A stretch of 33,147 nucleotides of DNA from UHGV virus genome UHGV-0236124. One strand, 5' to 3'. This document shows positions 2,692 through 32,213 of the stretch, piece by piece. The notes under the pieces were generated by a model, which did not search any database, was not told the origin of the DNA, and saw nothing but the letters and a program-made list of their open reading frames with translations. Source of the stretch: a virus. Made by a program: the position numbers and the translations under genes. Positions within the stretch are counted from its first letter, which is position 1. The number at the start of each line of letters is the position of its first letter.

Positions 2692-3507
2692 TTACTTATT
2701 CATTTCAATAATATTATTTTCTATCATTGATTTATTTAAAACCAAAGAAGGAGCAAGATGGTTGTCTATTTTAAACAATGCATAACTTTTAAACTGTTGG
2801 TGATATCCGTAACTAATAAGGATGCTAGAAAAATCTCTTAATTCATCTTCTTTTAAAAAATTAAAATGAAATGGGTTGTCACCATTTATGAACAATGAAA
2901 CATCTATTATGCAGTATTTCTCTCCGTTGTCATTTGCATAGAAAAAAATATAAGACATTCTGTTTGTTAAGACAATGCCATTAAATTTTCTTATGTCTGT
3001 AGCTATTTTGTTTTCCATGTTTGGTGCTACATATTTATTTTCAGAAATACATTTAATTTCATCTCCAGATGTCGTGATTATATAAAAATGAAACTTATCA
3101 GAAATATCTAACTTAACTACGCCATCATTATTGTAAAGGCTGCTAAATTTTGGTGGTTCAACTTTTAAAGAATCATAGTTCTTTAAAAGAAGAGGAGAGT
3201 CAAATTTAATAACTTGTAGTATCCCTTTACCTTCAACCTCCATATTGATTGAAGATATAGCAATTGCATTATCTCTTTTATTATTCAGGATTATGGTTGA
3301 TATATGCATGTCATATATTCTACTTGCATTTGCTGAATACGACACTGTCACCTTTTTTGATATTTTTTGCACGCCAAAATATATAGTGAAGGCAGCGGCA
3401 AGAATAGATAAGAATTTAATGTCAAATAAGGACCATAGCCACATTAGTTGCTCAATTGCTTCAGAGTTAATCATTTGCTTTACCATTATCGCTGTAATAC
3501 AACACAT
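2692..3507 (-). CDS. AT-rich hypothetical membrane-anchored protein (moron)
   Basis: ORF 2692..3525; N-terminal hydrophobic helix LMWLWSLFDIKFLSILAAAFTIYFGV; strongly A+T-rich codon usage unlike neighbours; start uncertain (ATGs at 3507, 3486, 3474; the 3525 start is TTG); no clear SD. Confidence 0.5.
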   Translation of the reverse strand: MCCITAIMVKQMINSEAIEQLMWLWSLFDIKFLSILAAAFTIYFGVQKISKKVTVSYSANASRIYDMHISTIILNNKRDNAIAISSINMEVEGKGILQVIKFDSPLLLKNYDSLKVEPPKFSSLYNNDGVVKLDISDKFHFYIITTSGDEIKCISENKYVAPNMENKIATDIRKFNGIVLTNRMSYIFFYANDNGEKYCIIDVSLFINGDNPFHFNFLKEDELRDFSSILISYGYHQQFKSYALFKIDNHLAPSLVLNKSMIENNIIEMNK

Positions 3508-3628
3508 GTGTGTATATATACGCAATGCAATTATTTTGCAAGTGCTTCATTTACTATCAATAGCTACGTCACGTTATTGTTTAATGGTTCTTTATAGGGG
3601 CGGCAATAGTTAAAATTATCGCTTCCGT

Positions 3629-3662: not shown

Positions 3663-4487
3663 TCAGGCGGTGAAAGTACCAATAAAGGTTTCTACTTTGC
3701 TGTCTTTGAATTTCTCAACAAGCAGATCACGAAATTCGTTAGCCATTTCTTCCTGTACCGCTTCCAGCTGAATAATGCGCAGAACCAGTACAGGACGATC
3801 GCCAGTGATAATGCTGAGGCGTAATTTAAACGGACGTTCTTTCAGACCTTCAAACGGAACGCATTTAAATTCAAATGCCACTGGCATAATGTCTTTGGTC
3901 TTCGCTTCGACAGACTCCATCAGGGAGCGTTTGCCGCTGAAGTCATTATCTTCAAAATCAGCGGTCTGGTTCGCTTCAATTGTGATTTTACGGATCGCCG
4001 CAGCCGCTTTGGTTGCCTGAATGGCGTCACCATTAGCATCAAAGCCCACAAGGTAGTCGGCCCAGTCTTCAATCCATTCTGCCAGTGACTTCTGGGAGTT
4101 ACGCTCGCCATTAACAGACAACAGAGCAGAGAACGGAGCTGTCTTTTTCAGTTTGAGAGTGGCGGTGTTATCTGCGTGACCTGGTTCATCAATAGTACCC
4201 AGGTTAAGAACACTGACGGCACGCATATTATCAGCATCGATAAAGCAGCGGGTGCCTTCATCTGCAAGATCTTTAGAATAACGAGTAAAGTCATCGATGC
4301 TGGCAGTGGAAAGCGCACCACGGAAACGGAAGCGATTTAAATTTAATTTTTCCAGATCATGAATGCGGAAATTCTCAGGCAATGCCACAGCATCGGCACC
4401 AATCTTACTGATAATTTCATTAACACCCTGAGCAGAAATAAGGGCATGGATTTGATTAATTGCGGTTGCGTCTAAGTTCTGAGACAT
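3663..4487 (-). CDS. yfdQ: YfdQ-like (DUF2303-type) prophage protein
   Basis: 274 aa, same length and similar sequence to CPS-53 YfdQ as I recall it; recollection-based. Confidence 0.55.
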
Positions 4488-4552
4488 AATAAGTCCTCAC
4501 TATATAAAGATATTCAGTGATGAGATAAATAATCGGTTAATTAAGAACGATA

Positions 4553-4915
4553 TTAATGACCTGCTGCGCGGAGTTTTCCGTCAGGTTCACCGGCAAGAGT
4601 CAGTAATTGTCCCTGGTCTTCCTGCAGAATAGTCAGGCGACCACCGCGATTGACATACATCGGCGTTTCGGTGGTGTCTTCTTCGGAAATTTTCCCGCGG
4701 TTAGTCGGGCGAACATATGAGAGTTTGTGTTTGATTTTCACACGGTTCTCATCAAATGGTTCGATTTCCAGGTTGAGTGAGACCTTACCTTTGGTTTTCG
4801 TGTTCATCACACCGGAAGCGACTTCACTGAGAACTGCGCCGATTTTGGTTTCAAATACGCCGCCGTCCAGCTCCCCAATAAATGCCTGCACATCAGTACT
4901 GCGTTCGCTAGCCAT
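4553..4915 (-). CDS. YfdP-like hypothetical protein (120 aa)
   Basis: Start moved to internal ATG (MASERSTDV...) which is preceded by AGGAGCAGCAAA; the longer ORF to 5101 has no RBS and runs into the GC-rich leader. Confidence 0.5.
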   Translation of the reverse strand: MASERSTDVQAFIGELDGGVFETKIGAVLSEVASGVMNTKTKGKVSLNLEIEPFDENRVKIKHKLSYVRPTNRGKISEEDTTETPMYVNRGGRLTILQEDQGQLLTLAGEPDGKLRAAGH

Positions 4916-5524
4916 TTTGCTGCTCCTAATCATATCGACCCTGCAAGGTCGGTTGGTTTCTCCACAAAACAGAGAAGAACACCTGCGGTGGCAGCCGCCC
5001 GGATGGATTTGGTTATGAGCCCGTCGTCCGGTGATGCTCTTCTCTGTTTTGTAAAAAGAGCGGTACCAGCCGGAAGCAAGTGTACAAACTGGTACCGCCA
5101 AAGCAGTGGCTGTTGTGGTGACCGGTGCTGATCTCCGGCTTGCGGTTATTTCAGACTCTCACGGGCGTTTAATTGCCCCGCCGAACAGCTCTTTTCCGCA
5201 TTAGCTGCAATGTCTTTCGCGCATCAGCCTGCGCATTCACCACAACGCTGAGAGCACTTAGCCAGTTACGGCACCACACTTTGTCGCGGTTCCATAAATG
5301 TCCTCATCGTTGCACCCTGGTCTCTTCCCAGGCGTCAAACCGAATCGCCACGCTGGTTAGGCGTCTTATCAGCATCATCATTGACTTGCACATTCCGGCT
5401 ACCTGGTTTGTTTGCCCGAGCAAGGAGTGGATTGTCCCCTTTAACGTCCCCAGACCGCTAACGACGCATGTGCCATACGCCGTGTTACAACCAAATTTTG
5501 TTTAATCTTGCCTGTGCTGTGTTT

Positions 5525-5553
5525 CTTTTAGATACATTATGTATCCCAAAGGT
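5525..5553 (-). promoter_or_regulatory. pL-like leftward early promoter candidate with overlapping operator-like site
   Basis: Minus strand reads TTGACA-17 nt-ATAATG; imperfect operator atgtatc-ccaaa-ggtacat (5529-5547) has the same architecture as the OR palindrome. Confidence 0.4.
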
Positions 5554-5555
5554 AC

Positions 5556-5580
5556 ATTGTCAAGTATAAAAAAACCTGCC
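5556..5580 (-). terminator. terminator downstream of the repressor gene
   Basis: aacctgc-cgaa-gcaggtt hairpin with T-run on the minus strand (plus-strand aaaaaaa at 5556-5562). Confidence 0.5.
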
Positions 5581-5601
5581 GAAGCAGGTTATAAATATTG
5601 A

Positions 5602-6276
5602 TTAGGCCTTTATTATGTATCTTCTTGGTTTTCCTGAGAAAATCACTGTACCAATTATAGAGCAATTACCGTTAATCTTAATGTAAGGCTCAGGCCAGTT
5701 TGGGTTTAATGCTTTGAGATAACGCTGTGTTCCATCTTCTATCAACCGCTTGAAGGTGGTTTCGCCTGTATCGTGCATCAATGCAATAACGTCGTCACCG
5801 TGGCAGGCAGGGACTTCAGGATCAACAAAAATCATGTCTCCCGGGCGGTACTCATCAATCATTGAATCACCAATCACCCGCAAGATATAAGTCATTTCGC
5901 CACAGGGTACAGGGCAGGGATAAGTTTCTGCTGTGCTCAAATCAACCTCAGAATAGCCAACTTCTTTCCATGCTCCGGCCTGTACCCATGATATGACAGG
6001 GACTAACGTTATTTGTTTGTTAGTGATTGAAACGTCAGTTTTTTTTGTGATGTTCGTTGTCTGGTGTTCTTGATCAAGCCATCCGACAGGCAGGTCGAAA
6101 CATTTTTCGATGTGCCGTGCCATGCTGTCACCGATATTTTTAGTTGCACCATCTCCCATAAACCTGCTGGTCTGGGTTGGCTCGCGATCAATCATGGTGG
6201 CAAAGGAAGAATTCCCGCCAACACCATCTCTCAGTTTTCTGGCGTTAGACCGCCGGATGTCATGGACTGTTTTCAT
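5602..6276 (-). CDS. CI-like phage repressor (HTH plus S24 LexA-like peptidase domain)
   Basis: 224 aa; N-terminal HTH region and C-terminal ...ILRVIGDSMIDEYRPGDMIFVDPE... typical of S24 autocleaving repressors; divergent from the cro-like gene. Confidence 0.85.
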   Translation of the reverse strand: MKTVHDIRRSNARKLRDGVGGNSSFATMIDREPTQTSRFMGDGATKNIGDSMARHIEKCFDLPVGWLDQEHQTTNITKKTDVSITNKQITLVPVISWVQAGAWKEVGYSEVDLSTAETYPCPVPCGEMTYILRVIGDSMIDEYRPGDMIFVDPEVPACHGDDVIALMHDTGETTFKRLIEDGTQRYLKALNPNWPEPYIKINGNCSIIGTVIFSGKPRRYIIKA

Positions 6277-6292
6277 AAAGAAATTAAAACCT

Positions 6293-6311
6293 TTGTACCG
6301 ATAAGGTACAA
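6293..6311. promoter_or_regulatory. operator: perfect palindrome TTGTACC-GATAA-GGTACAA
   Basis: Read directly in the cI-cro intergenic region; related imperfect copies at 6343-6361 and 5529-5547. Confidence 0.55.
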
Positions 6312-6316
6312 GTATC

Positions 6317-6344
6317 TTGAAGGTTCATCTCAATCATGTAATAT
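6317..6344 (+). promoter_or_regulatory. pR-like promoter candidate
   Basis: TTGAAG-16 nt-TAATAT about 22 nt upstream of the cro-like ATG. Confidence 0.45.
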
Positions 6345-6366
6345 GTATACCGGAGGTACATATTGT

Positions 6367-6567
6367 ATGAAAGCGTATTGGGACTCTTTAACCAAAGAAC
6401 AGCAGGGTGAGTTGGCCGGAAAAGTTGGCTCAACACCAGGCTACTTACGGCTGGTTTTCAATGGTTATAAAAAAGCCAGTTTTGTGCTGGCTAAAAAACT
6501 TGAGCAATGCACGTCAGGTGCAATTACGAAATCTGACTTAAGACCGGATATCTATCCGAAAGATTAA
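6367..6567 (+). CDS. Cro-like / YdaS-family small HTH regulator
   Basis: 66 aa from internal ATG with GGAGG upstream; MKAYWDSLTKEQQGELAGKVGSTPGYLRLVFNG... resembles YdaS/Cro-type proteins; divergent from the repressor. Confidence 0.7.
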   Translation: MKAYWDSLTKEQQGELAGKVGSTPGYLRLVFNGYKKASFVLAKKLEQCTSGAITKSDLRPDIYPKD

Positions 6568-6598: not shown

Positions 6599-7162
6599 AT
6601 GAGGCTAACCGTGGGTAAGCATCACTGGAAAGTAGAAAAACAGCCTGAGTGGTACGTGAAAGCTGTCAGAAAAACTATCGCGGCGTTGCCGGGGGGTTAC
6701 GCTGAAGCTGCTGAGTGGCTGGATGTAACAGAGAACGCTTTATTCAACCGCCTTCGTGCAGATGGCGATCAGATTTTCCCGCTGGGATGGGCAATGGTTT
6801 TACAGCGCGCGGCTGGCACTCACTACATTGCGGATGCTGTCGCACAGTCTGCTGGTGGGGTGTTCGTATCGCTTCCTGAAATTGAGGAAGTAGAGAACGC
6901 CGATATAAACCAGCGCCTGCTGGAAGTCATCGAACAGATCGGGAGTTACTCAAAGCAGATTCGTTCGGCAATCGAAGATGGGGTAGTGGAGCCACACGAG
7001 CAGACAGCAATTAATGATGAGTTGTATCTGTCAATTTCGAAGCTCCAGGAGCATGCAGCACTGGTCTACAAAATCTTTTGCGCTCCAGAAAAGAGTGACG
7101 CCCGCGAGTGTGCAGCTCCGGGCGTCGTGGCGTTTTGTGTCTGTGGAGAAACTAACGCATGA
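6599..7162 (+). CDS. YdaT-like (CII-position) regulator-domain protein
   Basis: 187 aa immediately after the cro-like gene; sequence resembles the YdaT family as I recall it; stop overlaps next start. Confidence 0.55.
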   Translation: MRLTVGKHHWKVEKQPEWYVKAVRKTIAALPGGYAEAAEWLDVTENALFNRLRADGDQIFPLGWAMVLQRAAGTHYIADAVAQSAGGVFVSLPEIEEVENADINQRLLEVIEQIGSYSKQIRSAIEDGVVEPHEQTAINDELYLSISKLQEHAALVYKIFCAPEKSDARECAAPGVVAFCVCGETNA

Positions 7163-7995
7163 ACAGTTTAACGGCAAATAACCGTTTGTCGCAACAGCTG
7201 GTGGTCAGCGTCGCTGAACACCTGTTGTTACGGCATGAATGCAGATTACCAAATCTCCTGGCTGTAAGTAACCACAGAGAACTTTACCTGACTGTGGGGG
7301 GCGAGTTGTGCAGGAACTTAACCGCTGGTTTCGTGACGGAAGAGGACTTTATGTTCATGTTATTCGTTGGGAGCCAGAAACACAGCGCGTTATCTATCTT
7401 CGCAAAGACTACCCGCATGAGTGCTTTAGTCCTTTGTGGAAATTCAGGCGTGATTTTGTTGAGTGTGAAGGACCACCAGCACATTGATTCTGCCATTCCG
7501 GGACGTTACACTGTTCAGGCACCTTATAAAGCGGGTGCTGGGATTGGCGTCCTGGAAATGTTATCGGCGATATATGACGCGCCAGCGTCTTTTTTATCGT
7601 CTGCGTCTGTGCACACCCAAATTATGGTGGGCTGGACGGGGGCACCGAAAGGTGCGCCGGTTTCCGATAACGCCGGTTACGCCAACCCCGTTCAGTTCAC
7701 CACCAGCGAAATTGGCGTTTCCGGTGGTGAAGGTAATTCACTGTTATCGGAGGCTGCCATCATGGCTACTGTCCCAGCCCTCACTCGTCTGAATGATGAA
7801 GACTTACATAAACTCAGTTATGTAACAACTGCACTACGTGCTCTGCGCAAGGTAACTCTTTCGGATCCGCAGGCGCATCAGGTTTTGGTAGAAACCCTTC
7901 TTAACTTGCAGGCTGAACGTATTCGTCTGGCGGATAAGGCTAATTTTCATATTCACCGTCTCCTGAATATCAGCGGAGGGCATCGTCATGCTTAA
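7159..7995 (+). CDS. hypothetical early-operon protein
   Basis: 278 aa; ATGA overlap with upstream gene and 8-nt overlap with downstream gene indicate translational coupling; no recognisable family. Confidence 0.45.
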   Translation: MNSLTANNRLSQQLVVSVAEHLLLRHECRLPNLLAVSNHRELYLTVGGELCRNLTAGFVTEEDFMFMLFVGSQKHSALSIFAKTTRMSALVLCGNSGVILLSVKDHQHIDSAIPGRYTVQAPYKAGAGIGVLEMLSAIYDAPASFLSSASVHTQIMVGWTGAPKGAPVSDNAGYANPVQFTTSEIGVSGGEGNSLLSEAAIMATVPALTRLNDEDLHKLSYVTTALRALRKVTLSDPQAHQVLVETLLNLQAERIRLADKANFHIHRLLNISGGHRHA

Positions 7996-20085: not shown

Positions 20086-21560
20086 TGGCAATTCTTGATG
20101 ATGTGATTGGCGTTTTTTCACCAGGATGGAAAGCGGCAAGGCTGCGTTCCCGTGCGGTGATTCAGGCTTATGAGGCCGTAAAAACGACGCGGACACACAA
20201 AGCCCGACGGGAGAACCGAACTGCCGACCAGTTAAGCCAGTACGGGGCCGTGTCGTTACGTGAGCAGGCCCGTTACCTTGATAACAACCACGATCTGGTC
20301 ATTGGTGTATTTGACAAGCTGGAAGAACGGGTGGTGGGGAAAAACGGGATTATTGTCGAGCCACATCCGGTATTACGCAATGGGGCCATTGCCCGTGATC
20401 TGGCAGCGGAGATACGCACCCGATGGAGTGAATGGTCTGTCAGTCCGGAAGTCACCGGGCAGTTTACCCGTCCGATGCTGGAACGTCTGATGCTGCGTAC
20501 CTGGCTGCGCGATGGTGAGGTGTTTGCCCAGATGGTTTCCGGGCGCATAAACAGCCTGACGCCTTCTGCCGGTGTTCATTTCTGGCTGGAGGCGCTCGAG
20601 CCGGACTTTATTCCCATGACCAGTGATGAGAGCAACAGGCTGAATCAGGGCGTGTTTGTTGATGACTGGGGGCGTCCCGAAAAATATCTGGTGTATAAAA
20701 GCCGTCCCGTATCCGGGCGGCAGATGGAAACCAAAGAAGTGGATGCAGAGCGAATGCTGCATCTTAAATTTGTTCGCCGTCTGCACCAGATGCGCGGGAC
20801 GTCTTTATTGTCCGGTGTGCTGATCCGCCTCAGCGCCCTGAAAGAGTATGAAGATTCTGAGCTGACTGCAGCAAGGGTCGCCGCTGCTCTGGGGATGTAC
20901 ATCCGCAAAGGCGACGGACAGAGCTATGAAACGGATGGTAATGACAGCAAGGAGAATGAACGCGAGCTTACCATTCAGCCAGGCATTATTTACGACGATC
21001 TGAAACCCGGCGAAGAAATCGGAATGGTGAAGTCGGATCGCCCAAATCCTAACCTTGAAACTTTTCGTAATGCTCAGTTGCGTGCCGTGGCGGCGGGCAG
21101 TCGTCTGAGTTTTTCCAGTACAGCGCGCAACTATAACGGCACTTACAGCGCCCAGCGTCAGGAGCTGGTTGAATCCACTGATGGCTACCTGATCCTGCAG
21201 GACTGGTTTATTGGTGCCGTCACCCGCCCGATGTATCGTGCCTGGCTGAAACAGGCTGTGGCATCCGGTGTTATCAGGCTACCCCGCGATCTTGACCGTT
21301 CTTCACTGTATACCGCGGTGTATTCCGGACCGGTGATGCCGTGGATTGACCCTGTTAAGGAGGCTGAGGCCTGGAAAATCCAGATTCGTGGTGGAGCGGC
21401 GACAGAATCAGACTGGGTACGTGCAGGTGGTCGTAATCCGGATGATGTCAAACGTCGGCGCAAGGCCGAAATTGATGAAAACCGCAAGCTGGACCTGGTA
21501 TTTGATACCGATCCGGCCAGTGATAAAGGAGGCAGCAGTGCCGCAACGAAACGACAGTAG
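20085..21560 (+). CDS. portal protein (lambda gpB-like)
   Basis: ATG overlapping the W stop (TGATG); 491 aa; position and size fit a portal. Confidence 0.8.
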   Translation: MAILDDVIGVFSPGWKAARLRSRAVIQAYEAVKTTRTHKARRENRTADQLSQYGAVSLREQARYLDNNHDLVIGVFDKLEERVVGKNGIIVEPHPVLRNGAIARDLAAEIRTRWSEWSVSPEVTGQFTRPMLERLMLRTWLRDGEVFAQMVSGRINSLTPSAGVHFWLEALEPDFIPMTSDESNRLNQGVFVDDWGRPEKYLVYKSRPVSGRQMETKEVDAERMLHLKFVRRLHQMRGTSLLSGVLIRLSALKEYEDSELTAARVAAALGMYIRKGDGQSYETDGNDSKENERELTIQPGIIYDDLKPGEEIGMVKSDRPNPNLETFRNAQLRAVAAGSRLSFSSTARNYNGTYSAQRQELVESTDGYLILQDWFIGAVTRPMYRAWLKQAVASGVIRLPRDLDRSSLYTAVYSGPVMPWIDPVKEAEAWKIQIRGGAATESDWVRAGGRNPDDVKRRRKAEIDENRKLDLVFDTDPASDKGGSSAATKRQ

Positions 21561-23565
21561 CCGCAGTACACCGACGACCAGTCCGAAGAATAATTCCTGG
21601 TTCAGGATGCAGGCTGGTCACCAGAGTGACGCGGATATTTATATTTATGACGAGATTGGTTTCTGGGGTGTTACAGCGAAGCAGTTTATCAGTGATCTGA
21701 ATGCACTGGGCGATATCACCCACATTAATCTCCATATCAATTCACCGGGTGGCGATGTCTTTGAAGGCATCGCCATTTTTAATGCGCTGAAAACACATGG
21801 TGCGTCCATTACCGTTTATGTCGACGGTGTGGCGGCATCAATGGCGTCGGTCATTGCGATGGTGGGAAACCCGGTCATTATGCCGGAAAACACCTTCATG
21901 ATGATTCATAAACCATTTGGCTTTACGGGCGGTGATGCGGAGGACATGCGCACCTATGCCGACCTGCTCGATAAAGTTGAGGCGGTTCTGTTACCCGCTT
22001 ATGCACAGAAAACCGGGAAAACCACCGATGAAATTGCTGCCATGCTGGCGGATGAGACCTGGATGTCCGGTGCCGAATGTCTGGCACAGGGATTTGCTGA
22101 TCAGGTGACACCAGCCGTTAAGGCAATGGCATGTATTCAGTCAAAACGTACAGAGGAATTTAAAAAGATGCCGGAATCCATTCGAAACATGATTACTCCG
22201 CCACGCAACAGTGCTCCACGCGTACAGGATGATGAACCTGCAGCCTCCCGGACGCCAGTGCAGGCAGCAGCACCCGTGGTGGATGAAAACAGTATCCGTG
22301 CGCAGGTACTGGCAGAGCAAAAAGCGCGTGTAAACGGTATTAATGATCTGTTTGCCATGTTTGGCGGGCGTTATCAGATGCTGCAGGCCCAGTGTCTTGC
22401 CGATCCTGAATGTTCGCTGGAGCAGGCCCGTGAAAAGCTGTTGAACGAGATGGGGCGCGAGTCCACGCCATCCAATAAAAATACCCCGGCTCATATTTAT
22501 GCCGGTAACGGTAATTTTGTGGGGGACGGGATCCGCCAGGCGCTGATGGCGCGTGCCGGATTTGAAAAAAACGAACGTGATAATGTCTACAACGGGATGA
22601 CCCTGCGTGAATATGCCCGTATGTCACTAACTGAACGGGGTATTGGGGTTTCCGGTTATAACCCGATGCAGATGGTCGGTGCGGCGTTCACACACAGTAC
22701 GTCTGACTTCGGTAATATTCTGCTGGATGTTGCGAACAAAGCCATTCTGCAGGGCTGGGAAGATGCCCCTGAAACCTATGAACAGTGGACGCGGAAAGGT
22801 CAGTTGTCTGATTTTAAAATTGCCCATCGTGTGGGTATGGGGGGCTTCAGTGCTCTGCGTCAGGTGCGTGAAGGGGCGGAATATAAATACGTCACCACCG
22901 GAGATAAACAGGCCACTATTGCACTGGCGACCTATGGCGAGCTGTTCAGTATCACCCGTCAGGCCATTATCAATGATGATCTGAATATGCTGACCGATGT
23001 CCCGATGAAACTGGGCCGTGCGGCGAAATCCACTATTGCCGATCTGGTTTATGCCATTCTGACGTCTAACCCGAAAATCTCCACAGATAATGTAAGTCTG
23101 TTCGATAAAGCGAAACATGCAAACGTACTGGAGAGCGCTGCAATGGACGTGGCATCGCTGGATAAAGCCCGCCAGTTGATGCGCGTTCAGAAAGAGGGGG
23201 AGCGTCATCTGAATATTCGTCCTGCGTTCGTACTGGTACCGACGGCGATGGAGTCTGTTGCTAACCAGGTCATTCGCTCCTCAAGTGTCAAGGGGGCTGA
23301 CATTAACGCCGGTATTATTAACCCGGTGAAAGATTTTGCGACCGTTATTGCAGAGCCTCGTCTTGATGATAACAGCCAGACCACCTTCTACCTGGCTGCG
23401 TCAAAAGGCTCCGATACGATTGAAGTGGCTTATCTCAACGGTGTGGATACGCCATATATTGATCAGATGGAGGGCTTCAGTGTGGATGGCGTGACAACGA
23501 AAGTGCGTATTGACGCCGGTGTCGCGCCAGTTGATCACCGCGGTCTGGTGAAATGTACGGCGTAA
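21538..23565 (+). CDS. prohead protease (ClpP/S49-like) fused to major capsid protein
   Basis: GTG at 21538 preceded by AAGGAGG; N-terminal ClpP-like region (IYIYDEIGFWG...INSPGGDVFEGIAIFNAL...MASVIAM) and a C-terminal capsid-like domain in one 675-aa ORF; alternative start ATG 21607. Confidence 0.75.
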   Translation: MPQRNDSSRSTPTTSPKNNSWFRMQAGHQSDADIYIYDEIGFWGVTAKQFISDLNALGDITHINLHINSPGGDVFEGIAIFNALKTHGASITVYVDGVAASMASVIAMVGNPVIMPENTFMMIHKPFGFTGGDAEDMRTYADLLDKVEAVLLPAYAQKTGKTTDEIAAMLADETWMSGAECLAQGFADQVTPAVKAMACIQSKRTEEFKKMPESIRNMITPPRNSAPRVQDDEPAASRTPVQAAAPVVDENSIRAQVLAEQKARVNGINDLFAMFGGRYQMLQAQCLADPECSLEQAREKLLNEMGRESTPSNKNTPAHIYAGNGNFVGDGIRQALMARAGFEKNERDNVYNGMTLREYARMSLTERGIGVSGYNPMQMVGAAFTHSTSDFGNILLDVANKAILQGWEDAPETYEQWTRKGQLSDFKIAHRVGMGGFSALRQVREGAEYKYVTTGDKQATIALATYGELFSITRQAIINDDLNMLTDVPMKLGRAAKSTIADLVYAILTSNPKISTDNVSLFDKAKHANVLESAAMDVASLDKARQLMRVQKEGERHLNIRPAFVLVPTAMESVANQVIRSSSVKGADINAGIINPVKDFATVIAEPRLDDNSQTTFYLAASKGSDTIEVAYLNGVDTPYIDQMEGFSVDGVTTKVRIDAGVAPVDHRGLVKCTA

Positions 23566-23587
23566 ACGTCGCAGACAACAACTCTGA

Positions 23588-23608
23588 TGGCCCGTAAGGG
23601 CTTTTTTT
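23588..23608 (+). terminator. weak terminator candidate after the capsid gene
   Basis: gcccgtaagggc followed by ttttttt. Confidence 0.35.
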
Positions 23609-23651
23609 GTACCTGAAATCAGCCCCTGAACGGGGCTGTGCGGAGACAGTT

Positions 23652-23975
23652 ATGGCAAAGAATTTTGTAGAAGAAGGAAAAACGGTGGCGATTGTTGCCA
23701 GTGCAGCCATCAGCAGCGGAGATCTGGTGCAGGTGGGCGATGTTTTTGCGGTGGCGCTGACCGATATTCCACAGGGTGAAACAGGCGACGGCATGACCGA
23801 AGGTGTGTTTATGCTGCCTAAGCTGAAAACGGATGACATGAAAACGGGTAAGAAGGTTTATCTGAAGTCCGGAAAAGTTCAGCTGACTAACAGCGGCTCT
23901 GATCCGCTGGTCGGGGTTGTCTGGGCAGATGCCGGAACCAGTGCAGAAGAAGTGCCGGTAAAACTCAATGTCTGA
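23652..23975 (+). CDS. head decoration / capsid-associated small protein (DUF2190-like)
   Basis: 107 aa immediately after the capsid gene; GGAG upstream of the ATG. Confidence 0.55.
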   Translation: MAKNFVEEGKTVAIVASAAISSGDLVQVGDVFAVALTDIPQGETGDGMTEGVFMLPKLKTDDMKTGKKVYLKSGKVQLTNSGSDPLVGVVWADAGTSAEEVPVKLNV

Positions 23976-24243
23976 TCCCTTTTCCCGGCTGGCAGCGCGT
24001 ATGGATGCTATCACGGTTAGAAAGATGGGAAAGACAGCCTCGATTAATGATGTCGATATGACTGTGATCCCGGGAGAAACACTGGCAGAGCTGAATGCTC
24101 TGTCCGGACCTGCGGTCTCTCTGGTGGTGTTTTCTTCGGGATACCGCCCACGGCGCGGGGATCGCGTTGTTTATGACGGACAACAATGGACGGTCACACG
24201 GCATGAACGTTTTAACGGTAAGCCAATGATCTTTATTGAGTAA
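23968..24243 (+). CDS. head-tail joining protein (lambda FII-like)
   Basis: 91 aa; ...SLVVFSSGYRPRRGDRVVYDGQQWTV resembles the lambda FII pattern; overlaps the previous stop. Confidence 0.55.
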   Translation: MSDPFSRLAARMDAITVRKMGKTASINDVDMTVIPGETLAELNALSGPAVSLVVFSSGYRPRRGDRVVYDGQQWTVTRHERFNGKPMIFIE

Positions 24244-24254
24244 AGAGGTGTGGG

Positions 24255-24833
24255 ATGAAGGGGCTTGAGAATGCCATCCGTAATCTGAACAGCCTTGATA
24301 CCCGTATGGTGCCACAGGCCAGCGCATGGGCGATAAACCGTGTGGCACAGAAAGCGGTCTCGGTCGCCACCCGGCAGGTTGCCGGGAATACCGTTGCGGG
24401 AGATAACCAGGTGAAAGGGATCCCCCTGAAACTGGTACGTCAGCGTGTCCGGGTGTTTAAAGCCAGTCCGTCAGGAAAAATGACGGCCAGGATCCGCGTT
24501 AACCGGGGCAATCTGCCCGCTATTAAGCTGGGGACAGCCCGGGTCAGACTGGCCCGGCGTGGTGGAAAACTGCAGTACCGTGGCAGTGTGCTGAAGGTGG
24601 GTAAATATCTTTTCCGGGATGCGTTTATTCAGCAACTGGCGAATGGTCGCTGGCATGTGATGCGGCGTATTGATGGCAAAAATCGTTACCCCATTGATGT
24701 GGTGAAAGTCCCGCTGTCCGGACCGCTGACACAGGCATTTGAAGATGCCCGCGACCGCATTATTGCTGCGGAAATGCCGAAACAGCTGGGGTATGCACTG
24801 AAACAACAACTGAGGTTATGGCTGACCCGATGA
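24255..24833 (+). CDS. minor tail protein Z-like
   Basis: 192 aa, same length as lambda Z (recalled); N-terminus MKGLENAIRNL... Confidence 0.75.
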   Translation: MKGLENAIRNLNSLDTRMVPQASAWAINRVAQKAVSVATRQVAGNTVAGDNQVKGIPLKLVRQRVRVFKASPSGKMTARIRVNRGNLPAIKLGTARVRLARRGGKLQYRGSVLKVGKYLFRDAFIQQLANGRWHVMRRIDGKNRYPIDVVKVPLSGPLTQAFEDARDRIIAAEMPKQLGYALKQQLRLWLTR

Positions 24834-25231
24834 ACCGACATACACAAATCCGCCAGGCCGTACTGGCACGCCTTCGGGAACAGTGTGGAGACAGCGCCAC
24901 GTTTTTTGACGGGCTTCCGGCATTTATTGATGCACAGGAACTGCCTGCCGTGGCGGTGTGGCTGAGTGATGCTCAGTACACCGGAAAAATGACGGATGAA
25001 GATGACTGGCAGGCTGTTCTGCATATTGCTGTCTTCATCCGGGCACAGGCACCGGATTCAGAGCTGGATATGTGGATGGAGAGCACCATTTTCCCGGCCC
25101 TGAATGATATACCGGCACTTTCCGGACTCATCGACACCCTGATCCCTCTCGGTTTTAACTATCAACGTGATAATGAGATGGCCACCTGGGCGATGGCGGA
25201 AATCACGTACCAGATCACGTACACGAATTAA
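24830..25231 (+). CDS. minor tail protein U-like (tail terminator)
   Basis: ATGA overlap with Z; MNRHTQIRQAVLARL...ATFFDGLPAFIDAQELPAVAVWL resembles lambda U; alternative start 24818. Confidence 0.75.
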   Translation: MNRHTQIRQAVLARLREQCGDSATFFDGLPAFIDAQELPAVAVWLSDAQYTGKMTDEDDWQAVLHIAVFIRAQAPDSELDMWMESTIFPALNDIPALSGLIDTLIPLGFNYQRDNEMATWAMAEITYQITYTN

Positions 25232-25242
25232 AGGAGGTGGCA

Positions 25243-25986
25243 ATGACCACACCAAATCCACTGGCAAAAACGAAAGGTGCGGGAACGACGTTCTGGATGT
25301 ACACCGGCAAGGGCGATGCGTTTGCGAACCCTTTATCGGACACTGACTGGCTGCGTCTTGCGATGGTGAAGGATCTGCAACCTGGCGAAATGACCGCTGA
25401 TGCAGAAGATGACACTTATCTCGATGATGAAGATGCAGACTGGAAAACGACAACCCAGGGGCAGAAATCCGTTGGTGATACTTCGGCGACGCTGGCCTGG
25501 CGTCCGGGTGACAGCGGGCAGAAAAAACTGGTTCAGTTGTTCGACTCCGGTGAAGTCTGCGCGTTTCGTATCAAATATCCCAACGGCACTGTTGATGTTT
25601 TCCGTGGCTGGCTGAGCTCACTGGGTAAAACCATTGCCTCAAAAGACGTGATGACCCGCACAGTGAAAATCAGCGGTGTGGGGCGTCCGTATCTGGCAGA
25701 GGAAGGCACTGAAACAGTGAGCGTTACCGGGCTGACGGTGGCACCGGCATCTGCCAGTGTAAAAGTGGGAGCAACCACCACGCTGACCTTTACAGTAAAA
25801 CCTGACGGAGCCAGTGACAAAGCGATCAGTGTGCATTCGACAGATCCACAGACTGCCACGGTGACCCTGAACGGGCTTGTGGCCACGGTGAAAGGCGTGA
25901 AGCAGGGCAGTGTCAGCATTGTGGGCATGACTTCTGACGGCGATTTTGTGGCAGTGGCTGCGGTGGCTGTCAGCGCCGCAGGTTAA
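25243..25986 (+). CDS. major tail protein V-like with C-terminal Ig-like domain
   Basis: AAGGAGG 5 nt upstream; KGAGTTFWMYTG...ANPLSDTDWLRLA; C-terminal Ig-like extension. Confidence 0.85.
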   Translation: MTTPNPLAKTKGAGTTFWMYTGKGDAFANPLSDTDWLRLAMVKDLQPGEMTADAEDDTYLDDEDADWKTTTQGQKSVGDTSATLAWRPGDSGQKKLVQLFDSGEVCAFRIKYPNGTVDVFRGWLSSLGKTIASKDVMTRTVKISGVGRPYLAEEGTETVSVTGLTVAPASASVKVGATTTLTFTVKPDGASDKAISVHSTDPQTATVTLNGLVATVKGVKQGSVSIVGMTSDGDFVAVAAVAVSAAG

Positions 25987-26043
25987 CAGGACGATACTCA
26001 TCATTTGCCCCGGTTATCCGGGGCTTTTTTGCAGGTGGAGAAC

Positions 26044-26433
26044 ATGATGTTTCTGAAACAGGGCACGTTTAATTATGAAAAGCAGTCCGTGGTGCTCAGT
26101 GAGCTGTCCGGGCTGCAGAGAATTGAATATCTGGCGTTTGTTCAGCAGCGAACGGCAAAGTTTGATGCCGAAGAGGGAGAACTGCCGGAGGCTGAACGAC
26201 AGATTGCTTTTCTGCGGATGGGGATGGATATCAATGCCTGGCTGGTTTCCCGCTCACTGTGGAATGCGGAACAGTCTCAGGATGTTGAGACGCTTTGCGC
26301 ATCCGTTATTACAACATGGTCGTATGATGCCCTGGGAGCGGGGGCGGAGATGGTTCTGTCGCTGAGCGGTATGGGAGTCATTGAGAATGCCGGGGATTTG
26401 GAGCATGAGGTGCTGACGCCGGAAAAGTCCTGA
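26044..26433 (+). CDS. tail assembly chaperone G-like
   Basis: MMFLKQGTFNYEKQSVVLSELSGLQRIEYLAF resembles lambda G; terminates just after the slippery site. Confidence 0.8.
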   Translation: MMFLKQGTFNYEKQSVVLSELSGLQRIEYLAFVQQRTAKFDAEEGELPEAERQIAFLRMGMDINAWLVSRSLWNAEQSQDVETLCASVITTWSYDALGAGAEMVLSLSGMGVIENAGDLEHEVLTPEKS

Positions 26434-26771
26434 CGCGGGAAATGCAGTTTGTCATGCGGCTTGCCCGGGAGTTCCGGCGGGCAGACTGGCGGCGGATGCT
26501 GTCGGAAATGTCGGCCACTGAGCTTGGTGAGTGGGGCGATTATTTCCGGATGCAGAGCTTCAGTGATGTGTGGATGGATGCGCAGTTTGCCTCGCTGAAG
26601 GCATTGATCGTGAGAATGGTGTCCGGTAGCAGTGATGCTGCGGTGGCTGATTTCAGCCTTTTACCGGAAGAGAACGGGATACCGGAGCGAACGGACGAAG
26701 AACTGATGCATCTTGGGGAAGGTATTTCCGGAGGTGTGCGTTATGGACCAGATAGCCAACCTGGTCATTGA
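26044..26771 (+). CDS. tail assembly chaperone GT fusion via programmed -1 frameshift
   Basis: T frame (26442..26771 in the ORF track) is -1 relative to G and open back to 26409; slippery G GAA AAG at 26421-26427 at the end of G. Confidence 0.6.
26421..26427 (+). other. -1 ribosomal frameshift slippery site (G GAA AAG)
   Basis: A-site AAG to AAA re-pairing is possible; lambda uses G GGA AAG at the equivalent position. Confidence 0.5.
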
Positions 26772-29700: not shown

Positions 29701-29817
29701 GGGCAGATAGGTCCGGCTGCCCTGAAGGTGGTTTATGACCTCGGGAAAAAAGCAGCAGCGGACTTTATGCAACAGCAGGCCCGTGATGGTGGTCGGTTAA
29801 GTGGAGCATATCGGTAA
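26743..29817 (+). CDS. tail tape measure protein (H-like)
   Basis: about 1024 aa; GGAGGTG 6 nt upstream of ATG 26743; long Q/A/R-rich coiled-coil body; between GT and M. Confidence 0.85.
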   Translation: MDQIANLVIDLGIDAAEFKNEIPRIKNLLNGAASDAERSSARMQRFMERQTQAARQTTQAASSAATAASVHAQTVEKNAQAHERMAREVEKTRQRMEALSQKMREEQAQAMALAEAQDKAAAAFYRQIDSVKQASAGLQELQRIQQQIRQARNSGGIGQQDYLALISEVTAKTRVLTQAEEEATRQKVAFIRQLKEQATRQNLSSSELLRAKAAQLGVSSAAEVYIRKMEQAGKATHSLGLKSAAARQEIGVLIGELARGNLGALRGSGITLANRAGWIDTLMSPKGMMLGWVIGGIAAAVYGLGKAWYDGQKEGEEFNRQLSLTGHYAGVTAGQLWTLSRAISGNGITQHAAAGALAQVVGSGAFRGNDIGMVARAAAQMERSVGQSVSDTINQFKRLKDDPVNAAKALDNELHFLTATQLEQIRVLGDQGRSSDAARIAMSALAEETGRRTADIDNNLNALGSTLKYLSDLWSRFWDAAMNIGREDSLDEQIAALQEKVSRAKRLPWTASSSQVEYDQQRLNDLQEKKRQKDLQDAKEQAERNYQEQQKRRNAENAALNRMNETEAARHQREIARINAMQYADQAVRDAAIQRENERYEKALASGKKKTRETRNDEATRLLLQYSQQQAQVEGQIAAARQSAGIATEKMTEAHKQLLALQQRISDLDGKKLTADEKSVLARKDELIQALTLLDVKQQELQKQTALNELKKKTIQLTSQLAEEERAQRQQHDLDIATVGMGDQQRQRYQVQLSLRQKYQQQLEQLRRDSEQKGTYNTDDYRKAEQALTESLNRQLNENRRYWQQLEIAQGNWKNGAMRAFQNFTADADNAAGTAEQMLTAAFNSAGNALATFCTTGKLNFKSFTASLLSDLAKIMAQMSMMQAVKGIGSAFGWGSAATASVTPNADGGVYQSADLSRYSGTVVNRPTFFAFAKGAGVMGEAGPEAILPLRRGADGKLGVVADIGGSGMAMFAPQYNIEINNDGTNGQIGPAALKVVYDLGKKAAADFMQQQARDGGRLSGAYR

Positions 29818-30146
29818 TGGAGACGTTTCACTGGAAAGTGCGCCCGGATATGAATGTGGTATCAGAGCCGAAAGTGGTGACAGTGAAGCTGGGCGATGGT
29901 TATGAACAGCGTCGTGCGGCGGGACTGAATAACCAGTTGTCGACTTACAGCGTGACAATACGTGTTCGTAAATGTGAACACCCATCTTTAAAAGCCTTTC
30001 TGGAACGGCACGGTGGCGTCCGCGCATTTCAGTGGACGCCACCTTATGACTGGAAACCGATTAGGGTGGTTTGTCGTAAATGGTCGGCAAGCGTGGGGGC
30101 GCTGTGGGTAACCATAACGGCAGATTTTGAACAGGTCGTGGCATAG
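29817..30146 (+). CDS. minor tail protein M-like
   Basis: 109 aa as in lambda M; METFHWKVRPDMNVVSEPKV... Confidence 0.85.
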   Translation: METFHWKVRPDMNVVSEPKVVTVKLGDGYEQRRAAGLNNQLSTYSVTIRVRKCEHPSLKAFLERHGGVRAFQWTPPYDWKPIRVVCRKWSASVGALWVTITADFEQVVA

Positions 30147-30155
30147 GAGGCTCTG

Positions 30156-30854: not shown

Positions 30855-30858
30855 TCCC

Positions 30859-32141: not shown

Positions 32142-32213
32142 TATTATTTACTCATGTTCTAACTGATTTAATATTTATATCGAACACTGATAATTATTCT
32201 GTTGGTTAGCTAT

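Follow-up and report, generated by a model that had tools for sequence, protein, structure and literature searches.

The interval studied here (positions 4916-5524) belongs to the viral genome UHGV-0236124, whose whole analysed stretch of 33,147 nt we call the window, and it lies between a repressor gene and the first leftward gene, both on the minus strand. The gene for the cI-like S24 repressor (5602-6276) is followed by its own terminator (5590-5573), and directly 3' of this terminator stands a pL-like sigma-70-type promoter (5563-5536, minus strand), composed of TTGACA at 5563-5558, a 16-nt spacer and CATAAT at 5541-5536; a promoter is annotated at the same position in phage Ayreon. An Stx2c phage, mEp460 and cdtI, like Ayreon, have this immunity region. 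A first-pass annotation of the window had placed this promoter at 5525-5553, which is the right site on the right strand, except that the span omits the -35 hexamer. An operator-like inverted repeat (5520-5556) overlaps the promoter. From the promoter position the transcript is predicted to start near 5529, and its first 45 nt or so (5529-5484) are rich in A and for the most part remain unpaired on folding. At the far end, the first leftward gene (4553-4915, minus strand, phrog_204) begins, as annotated, at 4915 with an ATG (4915-4913) behind the Shine-Dalgarno sequence AGGAG (4927-4923). It is a homologue of SfV orf32 and ST64B sb37.

The interval between these two landmarks has a GC content of 52-54%, against about 40-45% on either flank, and the GC profile, the ORF list and the fold statistics agree with its earlier description as GC-rich, ORF-free and structured. 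The transcribed strand indeed carries no long ORF; the short ones measure 24-49 aa instead of the 10-30 aa given before, and there is in addition one TTG-started frame (4553-5101, 182 aa), which prolongs the first leftward gene upstream in the same frame. The 110-aa ORF on the plus strand exists and starts with TTG. When the minus-strand transcript was folded, the whole 631 nt proved more stable than shuffled sequences (z = -3.4), as did module B and both hairpins near the first gene described below, and the search for conserved structure in relatives returned stem covariation and compensatory changes. These results support the view of a non-coding interval whose transcribed strand carries conserved, structured RNA. 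It is not a single untranslated leader, as which it had been read: the minus strand consists of five parts, namely module C, a connector helix, module B, a hairpin with a U-run and a 25-bp hairpin. Their distribution among phages is mosaic, each segment occurring independently of the others. The segment 4916-5100 is common to SfV and ST64B, the segment at about 5111-5259 to P1 variants, and that at about 5240-5483 to TL-2011b, typing phage 9, P1, SPN1S and Tyrion. Nor are the modules specific to leaders: they occur mid-operon in P1 and beside tRNA genes in virulent and Uetake-type phages, and some copies have a -10-like box just 5' or a terminator-like hairpin just 3' of them.

Module C (5494-5312, minus strand) is a multi-hairpin RNA of about 185 nt, which we delimited by a conservation profile and by alignments with P1, typing phage 9, Tyrion, SPN1S, BUCT711 and mEp390. 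Its hairpin H1 (5482-5462; 8 bp, loop GGCAC) is followed by helix H2 (5455-5450 with 5406-5401), which encloses a variable hairpin, by the invariant GGUAGCCGGAAUGUGCAAG (5403-5385) with a variable hairpin next to it, by H4 (5364-5350, loop CUAACCA) and by H6 (5332-5316, CCUGG-GAAGAGA-CCAGG). All elements that define the family, H1 with GGCAC, H2 around the variable hairpin, GGUAGCCGGAAUGUGCAAG, H4 with the loop NNNACCA and H6 with GAAGAGA, are found at 5482-5316. Compensatory changes occur in H1, H2, H4 and H6, and pairing lies above that of all 500 partner shuffles; the long invariant stretches carry no covariation information. Because a thermodynamic signal against shuffles is absent (z = -0.2), the case for module C is entirely comparative. 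We found C in 1833 of 5426 complete E. coli genomes, unannotated among the matches listed, and also in Uetakeviruses, in the pL leader of mEp390 together with a different repressor, and in several unrelated contigs 220-520 nt 5' of B.

The connector domain (5311-5244, minus strand) is formed by AACGAUGAGGACAUU (5311-5297), which pairs with AGUGCUCUCAGCGUU (5258-5244) and encloses about 38 nt (z = -2.2 against shuffles). The inserts that this helix encloses in relatives are larger and contain T-arm-like hairpins, and the 3' strand of the helix adjoins either module B or a real tRNA-Arg; in the alignment the same 3' strand precedes tRNA-Arg in SPN1S and BUCT711. Behind this strand, B occupies tRNA slots. 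The complementary upstream strand is present in 36 of 47 leader variants, which lends the helix moderate support.

Module B (5247-5111, minus strand) is a three-way-junction, tRNA-shaped RNA. Its closing stem (GUUGUGGUGA / UCACCACAAC; 5246-5237 with 5121-5112) leads through the junction AAU to the hairpin GCGC-AGGCUGAU-GCGC (5234-5219), a variable arm of 79 nt (5218-5140) and the hairpin GCCGG-AGAUCAGCA-CCGGU (5139-5121). The two hairpin loops are complementary (GCUGA/UCAGC) and near-invariant across the family; since they do not vary, a contact between them is neither supported nor refuted by covariation. A covariance model, R1, which was built from other B subtypes without the sequence type of the window, gave its sole match in the window here (74.9 bits, E = 2e-18). 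Divergent subtypes score lower, the SfV/ST64B type reaching only 23-25 bits. The features of the family are complete at 5247-5111: the closing stem, AAU, the 4-bp hairpin with AGGCUGAU, a variable insert, and the 5-bp hairpin with its UCAGC loop, stacked on the closing stem. For the closing stem we anchored elements on the loop sequences only and obtained 36 distinct stem sequences, in which 52 of the 56 non-consensus strands are complementary to their partner, compared with a mean of 10.7 and a maximum of 18 after shuffling. Double changes were also seen in 14 of 21 base pairs among copies preselected for pairing; as this selection required pairing, the loop-anchored test is the only unbiased one. 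The fold of B itself lies at z = -2.0 against shuffles. Module B is a bona fide RNA family and an autonomous module.

The family is widespread. An exact B 25-mer occurs in at least 120 IMG/VR contigs, and at least 120 species genomes, drawn from several proteobacterial classes, share an exact 19-mer; these samples required exact anchors and are therefore biased toward conserved cores. B is found in Gamma-, Beta- and Alphaproteobacteria and in about one fifth of complete E. coli genomes. Family-wide, its hypervariable arm ranges from 12 to 175 nt and the whole element from 60 to 210 nt. Some copies follow directly on -10-like boxes, and some, in other contigs, are followed a short distance downstream by a terminator-like hairpin with a U-run. 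The genes downstream of B and C are many and unrelated, in some contigs no closely following gene was found for B, and tandem copies of the modules occur. In many contigs B stands 20-40 nt 5' of a ribosome-binding site, a placement that fits a role in cis at least as well as one in trans.

The likeness of B to tRNA and to tRNA-like RNAs, such as the tRNA-like domain of tmRNA and the bacterial Y RNA YrlA, lies in its 7-bp closing stem, the short junction, a 4-bp hairpin with an 8-nt loop at the D position and a 5-bp hairpin at the T position that stacks on the closing stem, with a large insertion at the place of the anticodon arm. It differs from tRNA in having neither T-loop nor D-loop consensus, CCA or anticodon loop, and the elbow is replaced by the two Watson-Crick complementary loops. 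ARAGORN and the Rfam models for tRNA, tmRNA and Y RNA did not detect B. More broadly, ARAGORN returned no tRNA and no tmRNA in the window; cmscan with Rfam 15 gave nothing in the interval at gathering or at permissive cut-offs, nothing over B or C in the window at E <= 10, nothing for B and C at four other loci at E <= 0.01 and no match for a 62-nt minimal B. String searches of the literature for the invariant cores of the modules led to no paper. As side observations, one copy of B (L219) carries a tRNA-like sequence in its variable arm, an ARAGORN tmRNA call spans B in swi2, and a weak alpha_tmRNA match lies upstream of B in Magnus; the two latter do not cover B as such. Other candidate identities were discarded. 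A hammerhead-like CUGAUG/GAAA in B lacks a GAAA conserved across the family, and integron attC-like ends show the GTT/AAC motifs in reversed order. The EHEC/EPEC prophage sRNAs AgvB and AsxR are Rfam families with no match in the interval, and the Pas sRNAs are located in late regions.

Between module B and the first leftward gene, three hairpins follow one another (4916-5100), and this segment travels with the orf32/sb37 homologues in SfV, ST64B and phiNP. The first is an intrinsic-terminator-like element (5099-5051, minus strand) with a 13-bp GC-rich stem and the tail UCUUUUUAC (5059-5051), so that the stem runs into UCUUUUU. The ggtaccag/ctggtacc repeat that had been noticed before is present as GCGGTACCAG/CTGGTACCGC at 5060-5069/5089-5098 and forms the perfect arms of this stem. 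The hairpin is more stable than shuffles (z = -4.0), and together with its U-run it is kept in SfV, phiNP and ST64B; in ST64B the stem is entirely different (GUCGGCGUC/GACGCCGAC), while the tail CCUUUUUAC is the same. With its GC-rich hairpin, U-run and conserved structure, the element has the properties of a predicted intrinsic (Rho-independent) terminator. A simple terminator scan had missed it because its loop, of 15 nt (MFE) to 19 nt, exceeds the 3-8 nt allowed in that scan. Next comes a long hairpin (5052-4964, minus strand) with 25-nt arms (5052-5028 and 4988-4964) and a structured 39-nt apex. A perfect 14-bp pair had been reported at 4954-4967 and 5029-5042; the repeat is real, those positions are off by 10 nt, and the true one has a perfect 15-bp core (4964-4978/5038-5052) inside the 25-nt arms 4964-4988/5028-5052. 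None of 200 shuffles was as stable (z = -8.2), and in ST64B and phiNP the hairpin is kept with a G-C to A-U double change and few mismatches. RNase III substrates comprise about two turns of uninterrupted double-stranded RNA. A continuous stem of 21 bp is predicted within 5052-4964 and kept in relatives, which makes the long hairpin a candidate site for double-strand-specific processing of the RNase III type before the first gene, at which cleavage may take place. A short hairpin, CGACCUUGCAGGGUCG (4953-4934, minus strand), separates it from the Shine-Dalgarno sequence.

With a conserved terminator-like hairpin between promoter and first gene, read-through matters, and the first-pass annotation had considered a put-like element of the HK022 type, or another structured RNA, plausible. 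We found no support for put in sequence, architecture or a second copy. Blastn of the 620-nt leader against HK022 21000-32500 at word size 7 gave only chance matches of 14-21 nt, and the B model had no match at the HK022 loci. The put element is a two-stem RNA of about 70 nt that begins at +3 of the PL transcript, and each of the two early operons has a copy (PMC9378689). In our interval we saw no two-stem element of about 70 nt at the 5' end of the transcript, where the first conserved helix starts at 5482. By self-comparison and motif searches, C, B and the hairpins each occur only once in the 33-kb window, with no further copy downstream of pR. As judged from these comparisons, membership of the modules in the put family is not supported. 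HK022 put and the interval have in common that an N-less lambdoid phage encodes an RNA in cis in its early operon, placed before terminators, and C is likewise promoter-proximal in part of its family; the modules here differ in their size of 135-190 nt, in their architecture and in occurring outside leaders too. In line with the earlier statement that an N-type gene is absent, a Pfam scan of the neighbours, which was not exhaustive, returned no N-like protein. SfV orf33, which lies in an alternative module, was discarded as an N analogue, not being arginine-rich.

Known antitermination signals were likewise not found in the interval. A lambda-type nut site would consist of a CGCUCUUA-like boxA and a boxB with a GNRA-like pentaloop, together with N; the loop of H6 in module C is the 7-nt GAAGAGA, and the boxA-like CGCTCTTTTTAC at 5062-5051, the sole exact match in the window and not above chance, becomes CGUCCUUUUU / CGACCUUUUU in SfV and ST64B. 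We rejected the boxA reading of CGCUCUUUUUAC after the terminator-like hairpin, because it is not conserved while the hairpin and its U-run are. A boxA of the rrn/CRISPR type, UGCUCUUUAACAA-like, single-stranded and ahead of long untranslated RNA, is not present either: upstream of B, the UGCUCUUU-containing AGUGCUCU(N3)CGUUG is a 3' helix strand whose partner is CAACG(N3)AGAGCAUU, and as one strand of the connector helix AGUGCUCUUUCCGUU is no free boxA.

The closest positional counterpart is the lambda N leader with nutL, boxC and its large stem-loop, which occupies the same place between pL and the first gene. In lambda, RNase III cleaves this stem-loop, which precedes the N ribosome-binding site, and here, too, a long perfect duplex stands just before a ribosome-binding site. 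In one lambda-like contig, B sits alongside nutL and N, between the two, and takes the place of the inner part of the stem-loop that leads up to the N ribosome-binding site; its flanks are those of the lambda leader, with the boxB hairpin and the GGGGUGUG/CACACC stem among them. The stem interior of lambda itself is no B element (no match of the B model at E <= 1). Our interval differs from the lambda leader by the lack of an N gene and by its boxA-like CGCUCUUUUUAC not being kept in relatives. Other phage RNAs are comparable by context. GOLLD and ROOL (500-800 nt, both Rfam families) are structured phage RNAs found beside tRNA genes, as are the stable RNAs C and D of T4. Like B and C they are phage-borne and tRNA-adjacent, a likeness of context only: GOLLD and ROOL are not matched by the interval, and B measures 60-210 nt and C about 185 nt. 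Small RNAs of the DicF type resemble the interval as non-coding RNAs inside a repressor-controlled prophage early operon, and in the ban operon of P1 a dicF-like region and three tRNAs share one strand with B and C; DicF has no sequence or Rfam relation to the modules.

We propose, at about even probability and on the strength of the sequence comparisons, that the interval combines a cluster of immediate-early non-coding RNAs with a regulatory 5' UTR that is gene-specific. Once the repressor leaves the pL-like promoter, RNA polymerase would transcribe about 480 nt that fold into the autonomous modules C, connector helix and tRNA-shaped B, each closed by its own helix. Most transcripts would then meet the conserved hairpin and U-run at 5099-5051, and RNAs stopped there, or cut at the closing helices by host nucleases of a double-strand- or tRNA-processing type, would yield C and B as stable small RNAs. 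Polymerases that read through would go on to transcribe the 25-bp hairpin and, behind it, the ribosome-binding site that serves the orf32/sb37-type gene, so that early-left expression would be gated by read-through and possibly also by processing at the 25-bp hairpin. What the comparisons establish are the modules, their covariation, their movement between contexts and the conservation of the terminator-like element; transcription from the pL-like promoter, termination, processing and any role in trans we infer. With somewhat less than even confidence, we further suggest that B represents an undescribed, Proteobacteria-wide class of tRNA-shaped phage RNAs in early leaders that acts in trans on a host component, with C as a second class travelling along. 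B could then be released by its own start and terminator, by RNase III-type stems or from tRNA-type slots, and might target a tRNA-binding or RNA-processing factor or a defence system. Our guess is that B engages a conserved host factor that recognises tRNA-like shapes and that the hypervariable arm is a cargo or specificity element.

A different reading, which we regard as possible and on the unlikely side, is protein-independent processive antitermination in cis, put-like in action and not in ancestry: nascent C, perhaps also B, would bind the elongating polymerase or block Rho and so carry it past the terminator and the untranslated stretch into the early-left genes. This would fit the lack of an N-like gene among the neighbours scanned, the conserved terminator-like hairpin between C/B and the first gene, and the long invariant unpaired stretches of C, as expected of a protein- or polymerase-binding surface. 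In 138 distinct contexts, untranslated RNA of 75-955 nt, in most cases 400-900 nt, separates C from the first ORF found 3' of it, and none of these ORFs looked N-like. C also recurs just 3' of repressor-controlled early promoters, as in mEp390, with operator-like palindromes upstream of some copies, and a strict-rule scan found promoter-like sites upstream in 45 of 168 cases against about 24 in shuffles. This enrichment is only modest, for which reason we do not claim that C is always promoter-proximal; just about a quarter of the copies have such a promoter near. Antitermination is further disfavoured by the missing similarity to HK022 and the missing partner copy in the rightward operon, by the distance of about 45 nt that separates the beginning of C from the predicted transcript start in this phage, and by the P1 copy, which lies between trnI and ban about 2.4 kb from Pban. 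Moreover, B co-exists with nutL and N in the lambda-like contig, and elsewhere a terminator-like hairpin comes soon after B. We consider it distinctly unlikely that the interval is purely a cis-regulatory 5' UTR of the orf32/sb37 gene, comparable to the lambda N leader and serving mRNA processing, stability and translation without a separate RNA product that matters. The position of B inside the stem-loop between nutL and the N ribosome-binding site, its closeness to ribosome-binding sites in many contigs and the joint inheritance of 4916-5100 with the orf32/sb37 homologues speak for such a role; here, however, 200-570 nt and a terminator-like element separate B and C from the ribosome-binding site, and both modules stand beside many unrelated genes, tRNAs or tandem copies, or where no near gene was found. 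The 5' UTR reading is probably right for 4916-5100 and not for 5111-5494.

That B, C and the connector are functionless spacers or pseudo-tRNAs of a decayed phage tRNA island, spread by recombination with tRNA clusters, seems improbable to us. In its favour, tRNA genes accompany the elements in P1, in Uetakeviruses and in a T1-like phage, the connector inserts of relatives contain T-arm-like hairpins, and ARAGORN gives no tRNA in the window. Against it, the stems covary around loops that stay strictly conserved in Gamma-, Beta- and Alphaproteobacteria alike, which argues for purifying selection on the fold; C and B are kept in a third and a fifth of complete E. coli genomes, and in early leaders B lies far from any tRNA. 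An unrecognised small protein, N-like or other, is the alternative to which we give almost no credence. Short ORFs exist, and several phage records annotate hypothetical proteins here, each a different one, yet homologues show indels of every length class. The insert lengths of B modulo 3 are distributed 43/34/30, stops close all three sense frames in 75 of 107 B variants and 151 of 184 C variants, and the spacers of C vary in 1-nt steps. Stem changes are compensatory, and SfV orf33 is not arginine-rich. On this analysis of frames, stops and spacer lengths we rejected a coding role of the interval.

N-type antiterminators are absent from many temperate enterobacterial phages, whose handling of early transcription is poorly understood. 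In the phage studied here, the place of nutL and N of lambda is filled by portable RNA modules, which are very common, about one complete E. coli genome in three having C and about one in five B, yet are missing from annotations and from Rfam. Should B and C be stable early RNAs, they would be candidates for functions in host take-over or counter-defence; if they act in cis, they would represent a new way of achieving read-through in the absence of N. In both cases they are concrete elements in the well-studied phages P1, SfV, the Stx2c phages and mEp460, and several annotated hypothetical proteins, including upl/plp of P1, may overlie RNA genes.

The genome is a lambdoid prophage of the SfV/cdtI/Ayreon/mEp460/Stx2c-phage group; by megablast, 4400–6400 is 95–98% identical to SfV, cdtI, Ayreon, mEp460 and Stx2c-type phages. 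On the minus strand, the S24-type repressor gene (5602–6276) is followed by a terminator (5590–5573) and by a promoter, TTGACA-16-CATAAT (5563..5536), which an inverted repeat overlaps. The direct repeat ATTATGTATC occurs at 5536–5545, in the pL-like −10/operator region, and 76 nt apart at 5612–5621, within the 3′ end of the repressor gene, where it forms an inverted repeat with 5530–5540; this extra copy may be an additional operator. The rightward genes are, in order, cro and those for a CII-like protein, an Ash-family ORF, a replication protein and a PerC-like protein. Leftward, the first gene (4553–4915, minus strand; 120 aa, function unknown; SfV orf32, ST64B sb37, phrog_204) precedes YfdQ/DUF2303. 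We found no N-like protein in the neighbourhood of the repressor, rightward and first leftward genes, in agreement with the first-pass annotation. Elsewhere, matches to isrK (7519–7595, 59 bits) and C4 antisense RNA (7620–7707, 82.8 bits), both on the plus strand and at Rfam gathering level, lie inside a 278-aa ORF (7159–7995) whose residues 117–210 match the Ash family and which is annotated "immunity region" in SfV and Ayreon. The arrangement is suggestive of a P1/P7 immI-like RNA switch that overlaps, or takes the place of, part of the ORF. Just past YfdQ, the ORF at 2692–3525 (minus strand, 277 aa, phrog_14996, function unknown) has a GC content of 27–33% versus 40–55% in the prophage and looks like an acquired accessory (moron-type) gene.

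The roughly 600-nt gap between promoter and first leftward gene is real: its transcribed strand carries nothing but short ORFs and one TTG-started, in-frame upstream extension of the first gene. Its GC content is indeed raised (52–54%), the GGTACC-containing repeat lies where it had been placed (5060–5069/5089–5098), and the "perfect 14-bp pair" exists, although 10 nt from its assigned position, as a perfect 15-bp core (4964–4978/5038–5052) in 25-nt arms. Folding of the minus strand, as had been proposed, gave z = −3.4 for the 631-nt RNA; by piece, the values were −8.2 for the long hairpin, −4.0 for the hairpin with U-run, −2.0 for a module that we call B, −0.2 for a second module, C, and −2.2 for the connector between them. 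Comparison with phage records showed that this leader is a mosaic, whose relatives differ from stretch to stretch: 4916–5100 is common to SfV, SfIV, ST64B and phiNP, ~5111–5259 to some P1 variants, and ~5240–5483 to TL-2011b, O157 typing phage 9, P1, D6, SPN1S and Tyrion. Phages as diverse as Klebsiella Ackermannviridae, a T1-like phage and phages of Edwardsiella, Cronobacter and Erwinia match a ~40-nt core (5218–5258) at ~92%. SfV has 788 nt including orf33 in place of 5100–5506; orf33 is not N-like and was rejected as an N analogue.

Module C (5494–5312, minus strand) has a conserved core of helices: H1 is an 8-bp hairpin with loop GGCAC, H2 flanks a variable hairpin, the invariant 19-mer GGUAGCCGGAAUGUGCAAG and a second variable hairpin follow, H4 has a 7-nt loop with an ACCA end, and H6 is CCUGG-GAAGAGA-CCAGG. 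Exact-anchor scans of IMG/VR furnished at least 195 distinct sequences, in 75 clusters below 90% identity among the matches listed. With strands taken by loop anchors only and pairing not required, all four helices paired above all 500 partner shuffles, and each showed compensatory changes (H1 position 5, G-C 13 and A-U 9; H2, U-A/C-G; H4 position 3, C-G 18 and G-C 10; H6, C-G/U-A and G-C/C-G). Of 5426 complete E. coli genomes, 1833 carry C, in chromosomes as well as P1-like plasmids, and it is without annotation among the matches listed. It occupies the trnI–ban gap in P1 and the terminase–portal gap, upstream of tRNA-Arg(TCT), in Uetakeviruses, while in mEp390 it lies in the leader again, downstream of a different repressor. 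Promoter-like sites upstream of C are modestly enriched (45/168 vs ~24 in shuffles). The first ORFs 3′ of C mostly begin 400–900 nt on and are diverse, none having an arginine-rich N terminus. In several otherwise different contigs, C lies 220–520 nt upstream of B.

Module B (5247–5111, minus strand) consists of a closing stem of at least 7 bp, an AAU junction, a 4-bp hairpin with loop AGGCUGAU, an insert of 12–175 nt showing no conservation, and a 5-bp hairpin with UCAGC in its loop, stacked directly on the closing stem. At least 120 IMG/VR contigs contain its exact 25-mer GTGGTGAATGCGCAGGCTGATGCGC, and those listed form 91 clusters below 85% identity; searching by the 3′ half GCCGGAGATCAGCACCGG gave at least a second set, with differing 5′ halves, among the matches listed. 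When elements were anchored on loops only, 69 of 75 distinct combinations kept at least 6/7 closing-stem pairs, with 36 different stem sequences, and 52 of 56 non-consensus strands were complementary to the opposite strand, against a mean of 10.7 and a maximum of 18 in shuffles. Pair counting showed double changes in 14 of 21 pairs, among them every closing-stem and D-position pair; since the sample had been preselected for pairing, these serve as illustration and not as a test. The GCUGA and UCAGC loops of B are mutually complementary, and a loop–loop contact is predicted; because both are essentially invariant, they lend it no covariation support. A covariance model built from 30 sequences of other subtypes, with the window subtype left out, gave the window copy a score of 74.9 bits (E = 2e-18) and had no second match in the window; elsewhere it picked up the SfV/ST64B variant at the same position weakly (23–25 bits), a tandem pair in phage Magnus and an additional weak copy in P1, and nothing in lambda or HK022.

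The 19-nt B core is exact in at least 120 species-representative genomes; those among the matches listed include Enterobacterales, Pseudomonas, Xanthomonadales, Burkholderiales, Rhodocyclales, Rhizobiales and others, and 76 of the 97 listed genome copies with a recognisable 3′ half have at least 6/7 closing-stem pairs. A minority of the 19-mer matches do not form the fold and resemble unrelated coding sequence, and binning artefacts could account for a few in non-proteobacterial MAGs. Xanthomonadales, Burkholderiales and Methylobacterium genomes also have exact copies of the 19-mer AATGCGCAGGCTGATGCGC in another setting that is similar among them (loci L458, L471, L475, L496, L507, L517, L518, L524, L526, L528 and L551), laid out as CATGTCGATCGCCAG, 19-mer, 23 nt, GCCGGACATCAGCTCGGC with the closing stem absent; this looks like a conserved coding region. 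At least 1034 of the 5426 E. coli genomes carry the window subtype, which is without annotation among the matches listed. In some contigs B is placed right behind −10-like boxes, where it would be the transcript 5′ end; in some it is followed after 15–40 nt by a hairpin and U-run. It also lies 20–40 nt 5′ of the ribosome-binding sites of various early genes (e.g. for SSB, a RecT-like protein, polymerase-like proteins and orf32 homologues), and several of these genes encode lambda-N-like or P22-gp24-like arginine-rich proteins. At locus L152 the lambda leader itself flanks B, in the order start site, boxB hairpin, G/U-rich stem strand, B, CACACCACCAAAGCUAACUGACAGGAGG-ATG, so that B substitutes for the interior of the large nutL–N stem-loop. 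Pseudomonas-type copies have a closing stem lengthened to ~25 bp. In P1 (AF234172), the strong copy (75.7 bits; minus strand of the locus, about 3776–3879) spans the upl/plp junction on the strand of the ban operon, and the weak one is at 3493–3618. The operon order is thus dicF-like, tRNA-Asn, tRNA-Thr, B, tciABC, trnI, C, ban, and upl and plp, annotated in the opposite direction, may in part lie over an RNA gene. In one IMG/VR contig (L219), a tRNA-like unit, AGCUCAAUCGGUAGAGCU ... CUGGUUCGAUUCCAG, is nested in the variable arm of B. The Magnus copies (Klebsiella phage; 1295–1400 and 1440–1530) sit in a 1-kb stretch annotated with tiny ORFs only, just downstream of a weak alpha_tmRNA match. 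An ARAGORN "tmRNA" call in phage swi2 (1258–1632) covers B and a neighbouring tRNA-Met and is probably an artefact of tRNA-like pieces.

The connector (5311–5244, minus strand) is a helix between the conserved tail that follows C (CAACGAUGAGAGCAUU in relatives) and AGUGCUCU(N3)CGUUG, immediately 5′ of B; the inserts that it encloses in relatives are larger and contain T-arm-like hairpins. The 3′ strand of the helix adjoins B in Tyrion and the window, and a genuine tRNA-Arg in SPN1S and BUCT711. A complementary upstream strand, with bulges, is present in 36 of 47 leader variants, which gives the helix moderate support. The UGCUCUUU motif was dropped as a free boxA because it is paired as one strand of this helix.

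The proximal part (5099–4913, minus strand) contains, 3′ of B, a 13-bp GC-rich hairpin, UCUUUUUAC, a 25-bp hairpin, a short hairpin and AGGAG-N7-ATG, an arrangement that goes along with orf32/sb37 homologues in the alignment with SfV, ST64B and phiNP. In ST64B the terminator stem is wholly replaced (GUCGGCGUC/GACGCCGAC) with the tail CCUUUUUAC unchanged, and pairing in the long hairpin persists through one double change from G-C to A-U; the boxA-like CGCUCUUUUUAC is not kept in this comparison. Because hairpin, tail and long-hairpin pairing are kept and CGCUCUUUUUAC is not, we read 5099–5051 as a conserved intrinsic terminator and 5052–4964 as a candidate double-strand processing site, and infer both activities. 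A stop-free in-frame extension of the first gene from TTG 5101 (4553–5101, minus strand, 182 aa) crosses the hairpin region and could make gene callers mis-start it; homologues and AGGAG at 4927–4923 support ATG 4915 as its start. We rejected the interval as protein-coding: indels fall in all length classes (43/34/30 over the three residue classes for B inserts, single-nucleotide steps for C spacers), stops occur in all three sense frames in 75 of 107 B and 151 of 184 C variants, and ORF annotations are inconsistent between phage records.

The first-pass annotation had suggested an element like put, the antitermination RNA of HK022, or another structured RNA. The leader is unlike put in sequence, position, size and duplication, and Rfam 15 gave no match to B or C even in permissive scans. 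ARAGORN found nothing in the window, the AgvB, AsxR and Pas sRNAs are unrelated, and the invariant B and C strings appear in no paper of the searchable literature; both could be among the unnamed candidate structured RNAs of a large viral catalogue (PMC10690425). The best-supported reading, to which we give about an even chance, is that the leader would be a fusion of two parts, an immediate-early cluster of non-coding RNAs (C, connector, B) with a conserved terminator at its end, and the regulatory 5′ UTR for the first early-left gene. The main rival, that C and perhaps B promote terminator or Rho read-through in cis, seems to us unlikely; were it true, the functional idea of the first-pass annotation would be upheld, and the put relationship would not. 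B and C are autonomous and mobile, turn up in tRNA slots, and occur behind −10-like boxes or ahead of terminator-like hairpins, which suggests that they would be made as discrete RNA products. Their loops are invariant across bacterial classes and hence point to something conserved that would recognise them.
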